From a virus (lineage: Duplodnaviria; Heunggongvirae; Uroviricota; Caudoviricetes), in IMG/VR virus record IMGVR_UViG_2526164604_000013, positions 1 to 4,741 of that record: a stretch of DNA of 4,741 nt. One strand, written 5' to 3'. The position numbers are program-made. Shown here one piece after another: positions 1 to 3,000 of this stretch (positions within the stretch are counted from its first letter, which is position 1; every line of letters starts with the position of its first letter).

Positions 1-3000
1 TTTCTGGTTTTACGTGCGCAGCGTCAACCTGGTGGGGAAATCTGCGTTTGTGGAAGTCAGCGGGCAGCCCAGCAATGATGGTGAAGGGTATCTGGAATTT
101 TTCCGGGAAAAAATAGGAAAACTGCATCTGGCTCAGGGGCTATGGGAGCTGATAGACAACAGCCAGCTTGCGGATGAGATGGCGGAGATGAAGACCACCA
201 TCACGGAAACCCGCAATGAAATCACACAGACGGTCAACAAAACGCTGGAGAACCAGAGCGCCACTATACAGCAGATACAGCGCGTGCAGAAGGACACAAA
301 TGATGACCTGGCTGCGCTGTACATGCTGAAGGTTCAAAAACGAAAGACGGCATTCCCTATGTGGCCGGGATTGGTGCAGGGATTGAGGATACTGATGGCC
401 AGCCACTGAGCAACATACTGCTGCTGGCTGACCGTATCGCGATGATAAATCCGGAGAGCGGCAACAGCACGCCGTTATTTGTGGCGCAGGGGAATCAGCT
501 GTTCATGAACGACGTGTTCCTGAAGCGACTGTTTGCGGTGAGTATCACCTCGTCCGGCAATCCCCCGACGTTTTCCCTGACGCCGGACGGGCGACTGACG
601 GCGAAAAATGCGGATATCAGTGGCAGTGTGAATGCGAACTCAGGGACGCTCAACAACGTCACGATTAATGAGAACTGTCAGATTAAGGGGAAACTGTCAG
701 CCAACCAGATTGAAGGCGATATTGTCAAAACGGTCAGCAAGTCTTTCCCCCGCACGAGCACTTATGCCAGTGGCACCATCACGGTAAGAATCAGTGATGA
801 TCAGAAGTTTGACCGGCAGGTCATGATACCGCCAGTGTTATTCCGCGGTGGTAAGCATGAGAATTTCAACAGTAATAACCAACAGTCATACTGGTATTCA
901 ACCTGCCGGTTAAGAGTGACCCGCAATGGTCAGGAGATTTTTAATCAGTCCACAACGGATGCTCAGGGCGTATTTTCCTCAGTTATAGATATGCCTGCCG
1001 GACAGGGGACGCTGACACTGACATTCACCGTATCTTCATCAGGAGCGAATAACTGGACACCAACAACCAGTATCAGCGATCTGCTGGTTGTGGTGATGAA
1101 AAAATCCACAGCAGGTATCAGTATCAGCTGAATTTTATAACCCATATACGGGCGCCAGAAATGGCGCCTTTTTATTGCAGAAAAGCGAGAGGTAATTATG
1201 CGTAAACTTTATGCCGCCATTTTGTCCGCAGCCATCTGTCTGGCCGTATCCGGCGCGCCTGCATGGGCGTCTGAGCAGCAGGCCACGCTGAGCGCGGGGT
1301 ATCTTCATGCCCGGACGAGCGCTCCCGGTAGCGATAATCTTAACGGGATTAACGTGAAATACCGTTATGAATTTACGGACACGCTGGGGCTGGTGACGTC
1401 ATTCAGCTATGCAGGAGACAAGAATCGCCAGCTTACCCGTTACAGCGATACCCGCTGGCATGAAGATTCCGTGCGTAACCGCTGGTTCAGCGTAATGGCG
1501 GGGCCGTCTGTGCGCGTGAATGAATGGTTCAGCGCGTATGCGATGGCGGGTGTGGCTTACAGCCGTGTGTCGACTTTCTCCGGGGATTATCTTCGCGTAA
1601 CTGACAACAAGGGGAAAACGCACGATGTGCTGACCGGAAGTGATGACGGTCGCCACAGCAACACGTCTCTGGCTGGGGGGCTGGCGTGCAGTTTAACCCG
1701 ACCGAATCCGTGGCCATTGATATTGCTTATGAAGGCTCCGGCAGTGGCGACTGGCGCACTGACGGTTTCATCGTGGGTGTCGGTTATAAGTTCTGATTAG
1801 CCAGGTAACACAGTGTTATGACAGCCCGCCGGTTCAGGCGGGCTTTTTTGTGGGGTGAATATGGCAGTAAAGATTTCAGGTGTACTGAAAGACGGCACAG
1901 GAAAACCGGTAGAGAACTGCACCATTCAACTGAAAGCCAGACGTAACAGCGCCACGGTGGTGGTGAACACGGTGGCCTCTGAAAATCCGGATGAAGCCGG
2001 TCGTTACAGCATGGACGTTGAGTACGGTCAGTACAGCGTTATTCTGTTGGTGGAAGGGTTCCCGCCGTCACATGCCGGGACCATCACCGTGTATGAAGAT
2101 TCTCAACCGGGGACGCTGAATGATTTTCTCGGTGCCATGTCGGAGGATGACGTCCGGCCGGAGGCACTGCGCCGTTTTGAACTGATGGTGGAAGAAGCGG
2201 CGCGTCACGCTGAGGAGGCGAAGAAGAATGCCGGAGAGGCGGAGACGTCCGCGAGGAATGCCGGCATATCAGCCAGTCAGGCAGAAGAGAGCGCGGCAAA
2301 TGCTGACACTTCAGCAGGGGATGCATCGGAGTCAGCCCGGCAGGCGGCAGAAAGTGCAGCCGCTGCAAAGCAGTCAGAGGAGGCGTCCTCGTCCTCGGCC
2401 TCTGCGGCCGCTCAAAAAGCCAGTGGGTCATTACAAAGTGCAACAGATGCTGAGTTGTCAAAAAAGACGGCAGAAAGTGCAGCCGGTAATGCAGCCAGGG
2501 ATGCAACGACCGCAGCAGAAAAAGCCCGGGAGTCAGCAGAAAGCGCACAGTCAGCGGAACAAAGCAGGATAGCGGCGGAAGAAGCCGTAAACAGAATCCC
2601 CACCGTGGTGGGACCTCCCGGGCCAAAGGGGGAACAGGGGCCCGCTGGCCCTCAGGGGCCGAAGGGTGATAAGGGAGAGCGCGGTGACACCGGCCCTGTC
2701 GGGGCAACCGGCGAACGGGGACCGGCAGGTGATGCTGGTCCGGCAGGCCCGCAGGGGCCGAAAGGTGACAGGGGAGAGCGGGGAGAGACCGGTCTGACGG
2801 GAAATGCAGGTCCACAGGGTCCAAAGGGAGACACCGGGGCAGCAGGCCCGGCAGGCCCACAGGGACCGAAAGGAGAAACAGGTGCGGCTGGCCCGGTGGG
2901 GGCAACCGGACCTCAGGGGCCGGGAAACATTATTGAGACAAACAGCATGGCTGGTTCCCGGATACAGATGGTGCGCTCATCACCGGACTGACCTTTCTTG

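Follow-up and report, generated by a model that had tools for sequence, protein, structure and literature searches.

One-base break at an A5 run in the tail tip gene J of an Escherichia coli O157:H7 prophage contig: a probable consensus error

The window, that is, the whole stretch of 4,741 nucleotides analyzed here, corresponds from end to end to contig AKMA01000013.1 (4741 bp) in the draft assembly GCA_000267185.1 of E. coli O157:H7 TW10119. Its left end holds the 3' end of J, the lambda-type tail tip or central tail fibre gene, with the last 376 codons (1-1131), followed by lom, the side tail fibre gene stf, a tail fibre C-terminal gene, and two NleG genes (Table 1). The order J-lom-stf is found equally in F6667, YYZ-2008, and lambda, and J lies where a lambda-type J is expected in the tail module, after the tail assembly genes and before lom and the side tail fibre gene. 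F6667 carries the same module, followed by a third NleG gene, dinI, and ydfJ. A single ORF of about 1130-1160 codons is not found for J in the deposited sequence, which breaks at 336-340, and is obtained once one A is added. Frame 1 contains stops until about base 305 and is open thereafter to the J stop, and gene callers report the downstream part of J as a 256-aa ORF from GTG 361. On the repaired fragment the C-terminal domain set of J is complete, with the second Ig-like domain (PF24489, E 1e-9), the tail tip fibre domain (PF09327, E 6.5e-24), and the receptor-binding Ig domain (PF12421, E 1.1e-36). This is an unremarkable gene of the lambda gpJ family; the initial annotation had called it a J-like tail tip gene, and this is borne out by the lambda-type domains and by the gene order.

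Table 1: Features of the window and one-base deletions relative to F6667.
Feature	Position	Strand	Description
J, upstream segment	2..409	+	Frame 2; J residues 784-896, then 22 out-of-frame residues, TGA 407-409; Pfam: Ig_J_second and start of Phage_Tail_Tip
Deletion 1	335/336		A6 -> A5; in J
A5 run	336..340	+	One A fewer than the A6 of nearly all relatives; J frame broken
J, downstream segment	337..1131	+	Frame 1; J residues 896-1159; J stop 1129-1131; Pfam: rest of Phage_Tail_Tip (PF09327) and Ig_GpJ_C receptor-binding domain (PF12421)
Terminator-like hairpin after J	1151..1173	+	GGCGCC-AGAAAT-GGCGCC; T5 run 1169-1173
Deletion 2	1168/1169		T6 -> T5; in the terminator after J (intergenic)
lom (Ail/Lom outer membrane protein)	1198..1800	+	Private deletion at 1673/1674
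Deletion 3	1673/1674		GCGTGG -> GCTGG; in lom
Side tail fibre gene (stf)	1861..3127	+	phage_tail_N and collagen-like repeats; two private one-base deletions
Deletion 4	2945/2946		CAGC[C/A]ATGG -> CAGCATGG; in stf
Deletion 5	3028/3029		T7 -> T6 (run 3029-3034); in stf
Phage_fiber_C gene	3129-3398	+	Pfam
Indel-free part of the contig	3129..4741	+	One substitution (3134) and no indels vs F6667; internal control
NleG effector gene, complete	3512-4087	+	Pfam; DUF1076, U-box type III effector
NleG gene, partial	4160-4741	+	Second gene of the tandem; contig ends inside

The frame of J is lost within CAAAAACG (335-342), which spans the A5 run. In the alignment to F6667 (O157:H7), the closest complete genome with 99.7% identity, exactly one A is absent from the window, A6 in the relative standing against A5. 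When one A was inserted, the result was a 376-residue fragment that matches the intact F6667 J (1159 aa) at 100% identity over residues 784-1159, as expected from the earlier claim that A6 would restore a continuous protein; the shift out of frame 2 into frame 1 at an A5 homopolymer, described with it, is confirmed by both frames and by the F6667 alignment. The break falls at K896/T897, within Phage_Tail_Tip and upstream of the receptor-binding domain. Lambda J is unbroken across the corresponding site (VKIEQTKDGKHYVAGIG), and all 20 phage records among the matches listed span 1141 bases vs 1140 in the window. It had also been considered that orthologues of this protein might naturally end and restart here. 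The orthologue comparison shows a continuous J instead, and a natural end and restart at the site is ruled out by the continuity of J in lambda and in more than 600 relatives.

The missing A is one of several length differences. Compared with F6667, single bases are missing from the window at five sites and added at none, all five sites being within the first 3.1 kb, next to 7 substitutions in the J-to-stf span and 9 over the whole contig. Three of the five deletions fall in runs of 6-7 bases in relatives. The four deletions outside J had no exact match in 4,435, 4,642, 649, and 706 matching records from 5,426 complete E. coli genomes, and the best match at each of these sites was one base longer every time. 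In the terminator-like hairpin after J, the T-run of relatives is T6 (44 loci) and rarely T7 (4). The deletion in lom changes GGCGTGGGGGG to GGCTGGGGGG (1671-1680) and shifts the frame, the native C-terminus (...AGVQFNPTESVAIDIAYEGSGSGDWRTDGFIVGVGYKF) resuming in frame 3 with TGA at 1794-1796. The stf gene is shifted twice, and its last 33 codons (3026-3124) lie again in a third frame. At the stf site 2945, the paralogues have CCA (19) or CAA (27) where the window has CA, which suggests the pattern expected of a consensus over reads from mixed prophage copies. The Lom (200 aa) and Stf (376 aa) proteins predicted from the shifted frames were found on this contig only in a collection of 153 billion gene positions, in which the contig's intact 191-aa NleG protein appears in 7,119 indexed blocks.

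Some further variation was seen in the same genes. The lom of F6667 has a frameshift of its own at the neighbouring G-run, G8 vs G6, and is annotated "frameshifted" (NZ_CP038366.1; L001 5176-5186); this G-run is variable in length, being G5 in VXJM01000001.1 (L004) and in L078. The only other T5 in the terminator was seen in an IMG/VR draft contig (L010) that also carries the J A5 and a further J frame break. In the window, stf lacks 45 nt in frame at 2915/2916, immediately after the collagen-like repeats; the deletion is flanked by the direct repeat GGGGCCG, and this short form was found at one other place among 699 matching records, in the dacD-side nleG7 prophage of F6667. An origin of the left part of the contig from that dacD-side copy was rejected, since that copy shares only 97.3% identity with the window and fails to account for the deletions. 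It is one base longer than the window at the A-run of J and at three of the four remaining deletion sites, the stretch around 3025-3031 having diverged too far to be compared cleanly.

The five deletions are confined to the J-lom-stf module (1-3130), which is present in up to 8-13 copies per genome, and the NleG part of the contig (3135-4741), which is of lower copy number, is without length differences. Among the complete references, the out-of-frame indels of the span are those at the J A-run (two genomes), at the lom G-run of F6667, and at one intergenic T, and pairs of complete references differ by 26-84 substitutions. The ratio of one-base deletions to substitutions is 5:9 in the window (whole contig) vs 2:88 for a true paralogue (Fisher p = 4e-4), the second ratio being taken from the differences from the true paralogue excluding the window's own deletions.

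To see how often A5 occurs elsewhere, 85 bases centred on the site were searched against the 5,426 complete E. coli genomes, with 612 matching records. A5 was exact in two of these 612; the other 610 were counted as one base longer (A6), as was the next-best record among the matches listed. The two carriers, ATCC 43889 (NZ_CP015853.1; L007 5001-5085) and AUSMDU00002545 (NZ_CP045975.1; L006 5001-5085), are finished O157:H7 genomes of the long-read era, and in both of them the A5 lies in the J of a different prophage, the one with tccP-espJ, in which lom and stf are intact. RefSeq labels this J "frameshifted" in both genomes, and it has no other defect. The A5 haplotypes of the two strains differ at the positions corresponding to 237/238 of the window, and because of this local difference the two events look independent. 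AUSMDU00002545 was sequenced within a PacBio/Nanopore programme. For ATCC 43889 (CP015853), a literature search did not yield the sequencing method, the papers matched only citing the accession.

In IMG/VR, searched with 48/49-mers, the A6 form was found in 69 contigs and the A5 form in three. These three carry divergent variants of J from draft isolate genomes; two of them have extra frame breaks in J, and one shares the T5 undercall after J. A search for A5 in metagenome contigs gave no match. The exact 256-aa downstream ORF is on only three contigs of the gene-position index, namely, the window, ATCC 43889, and VXJM01000001, all of them long-read or draft assemblies. The last is a Nanopore assembly (PMC7200060) of strain E45000, in which J, lom, and stf are broken at many places and J is split into six called ORFs. 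Repeated CCAGG-to-CCGGGG changes at the Dcm motif (e.g., 7443 and 8136) are seen in VXJM01000001.1 together with many homopolymer deletions, and because these errors persist despite polishing with Nanopolish, Pilon, and Racon, its prophage tail modules are unreliable. The A5 is not reproduced in the same prophage of F6667, whose ydfJ-side NleG prophage has A6, and the only A5 in the same context is that of this noisy assembly with its many other breaks. Taken over independent assemblies of the locus, the closest relative lacks A5, and the two finished genomes carry it in another prophage.

Pyrosequencing errs chiefly by calling mononucleotide runs too short, and in short contigs of multi-copy prophage modules the consensus is built from few or mixed reads. 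The TW10119 draft genome, dated 2012, is among the 26 strains announced by Eppinger et al. 2013 (PMC3593324), a project that used either Illumina HiSeq alone with Velvet or Illumina combined with 454 FLX/XLR 3-kb libraries and Celera (PMC3593324). The contig numbers in the announcement are bimodal, 47-71 vs 393-1288, and TW10119 with 56 belongs to the low group. We infer that the low-contig group is the 454 hybrid set, the paper itself giving no assignment by strain. If TW10119 was sequenced by Illumina only, an undercall of A6 would be unusual, with a collapsed-repeat consensus error still possible.

From these sequence comparisons, the A5 of the window is very probably a homopolymer or collapsed-repeat consensus error, the real J being intact. 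An error is favoured because the J break is accompanied by four private deletions and lies in the multi-copy part of a contig from a 2012 draft. As in an artefact, the length of the run is changed by one, and other private indels, including a noncoding one, are found with it. The initial annotation had left the choice between a real pseudogene and a homopolymer sequencing error; the four further private deletions, the 2012 draft, and the continuous orthologues strengthen the second and weaken the first. Most likely, the J frameshift is not a real biological feature, and it is no evidence of a dead prophage.

The site lies in the 3' third of J in a lambdoid, NleG-effector-carrying prophage that adjoins ydfJ in relatives, and one A of a native A6 was most likely lost during consensus building of a short contig over a multi-copy repeat in an error-prone draft. 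At the A-run and the two T-runs the cause would probably be undercalling of the pyrosequencing type, and at sites where the prophage copies differ, for example 2945, probably a consensus over reads from several copies. Copy collapse alone does not explain the deletion in J, because all paralogues have A6 there. The real gene would be an intact J of 1159 codons with its C-terminal 264 residues, that is, the receptor-binding domain and what remains of the tail-tip fibre domain, in frame.

Against an error stands the occurrence of A5 in ATCC 43889 and AUSMDU00002545, both finished genomes, as the sole defect of J, and because A5 alone breaks J in them, the change from A6 to A5 may be a real recurrent mutation. 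In these genomes A5 is either a natural mutation or an error that long reads make repeatedly. The record of the other A5 carriers suggests that they are assemblies prone to the same error (a Nanopore assembly, drafts, and a genome from a PacBio/Nanopore programme), ATCC 43889 excepted for its method.

A real pseudogene in TW10119, in which replication slippage from A6 to A5 would truncate J after residue 896 and add 22 aberrant residues, is unlikely. The receptor-binding domain would then be lost along with most of the tail-tip fibre domain; unable to build an infective tail, the prophage would persist as a permanently resident carrier of NleG effectors. Slippage is especially frequent at mononucleotide runs, and lambdoid prophages of O157:H7 are reportedly often genuinely defective; both points count for a pseudogene, together with the two finished genomes and the frameshifted lom of F6667 at its G-run, but F6667, the closest complete genome, shows A6 in the equivalent prophage context. 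The four accompanying deletions, one of them intergenic, are unique to the window, with all five in the multi-copy part of a short draft contig, and five one-base deletions to 7-9 substitutions are unlike the real divergence among such prophages. The restriction of the exact 256-aa ORF to three long-read or draft contigs likewise argues against a pseudogene.

It is very doubtful that the A6 in J is a genuine recurrent mutational switch, with independent changes from A6 to A5 in different O157:H7 effector prophages. As a joint claim it is just as doubtful that the tccP-espJ prophage (ATCC 43889 and AUSMDU00002545) and the NleG prophage (TW10119) were both locked by loss of the tail tip. With such a switch, some full-length J might still be made in trace amounts through an occasional -1 slip on A AAA.

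Recoding, by which a -1 slippage at A5 would still give full-length J from the two frames, is effectively excluded: P-site tRNA-Lys would have to slip from AAA 338-340 to AAA 337-339 before CGA, or an A be inserted in transcription, and although a single-tRNA -1 slip on A AAA would recreate ...VQKTKDG... exactly and CGA is slowly decoded in E. coli, the zero frame (GTT CAA AAA CGA) has no X XXY YYZ heptamer, homologues do not share the two-frame layout (J is a single ORF with A6 in relatives and runs uninterrupted in lambda), and five A's are too few for efficient transcriptional slippage. The region downstream (341-440) has a minimum free energy of -31.7 kcal/mol, vs a mean of -29.1 for shuffled sequences (z = -0.75), and 38 of 200 shuffles fold equally well. 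Programmed frameshifting was rejected on the lack of a heptamer, of structure beyond that of the shuffles, and of a conserved arrangement.

A real break would leave the NleG prophage of TW10119 without an infective tail, which bears on the transfer of type III effector genes between strains. If it is an artefact, as we favour, the matter is one of data quality only: false fragments of J, lom, and the tail fibre (131, 256, 200, and 376 aa) enter the protein databases and would inflate the counts of pseudogenes and defective prophages in O157:H7. The same caution is due for the A5 calls in ATCC 43889 and AUSMDU00002545.

The J of the window has the same Pfam domains and gene order as lambda gpJ and its O157:H7 orthologues (WP_072616999.1, 1159 aa), and the motif TKDGxxYVAGIG of lambda J is conserved across the site. 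It differs from the intact orthologues in that its frame is broken at residue 896 and only the last 376 codons are on the contig. Homopolymer indels are a known issue of long reads (PMC8116684). Homopolymer errors of pyrosequencing and long reads resemble the present case, likewise a deletion in a run accompanied by other private run-length deletions, here seen in the consensus. Unlike such run errors, the changes GCGTG to GCTG in lom and CC/CA to C in stf are outside long runs and are more like mixed-copy consensus errors. The likeness to the -1 frameshifting of lambda G/GT and of dnaX is a change of frame at an A-rich site, in a tail gene in the former case; unlike them, the site in the window is without a slippery heptamer, a stimulatory structure, and a conserved two-frame layout. 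The stf gene of laboratory lambda is likewise a lambdoid fibre gene split by one base: it reportedly carries a natural one-base frameshift between orf-401 and orf-314, and the split ORFs are visible in the lambda annotation, so such lesions can be real and tolerated. Nevertheless, the lambda stf lesion is reportedly present in every lambda PaPa sequence and affects dispensable side fibres, whereas the lesion in the window affects the essential J and is almost private to one draft contig.
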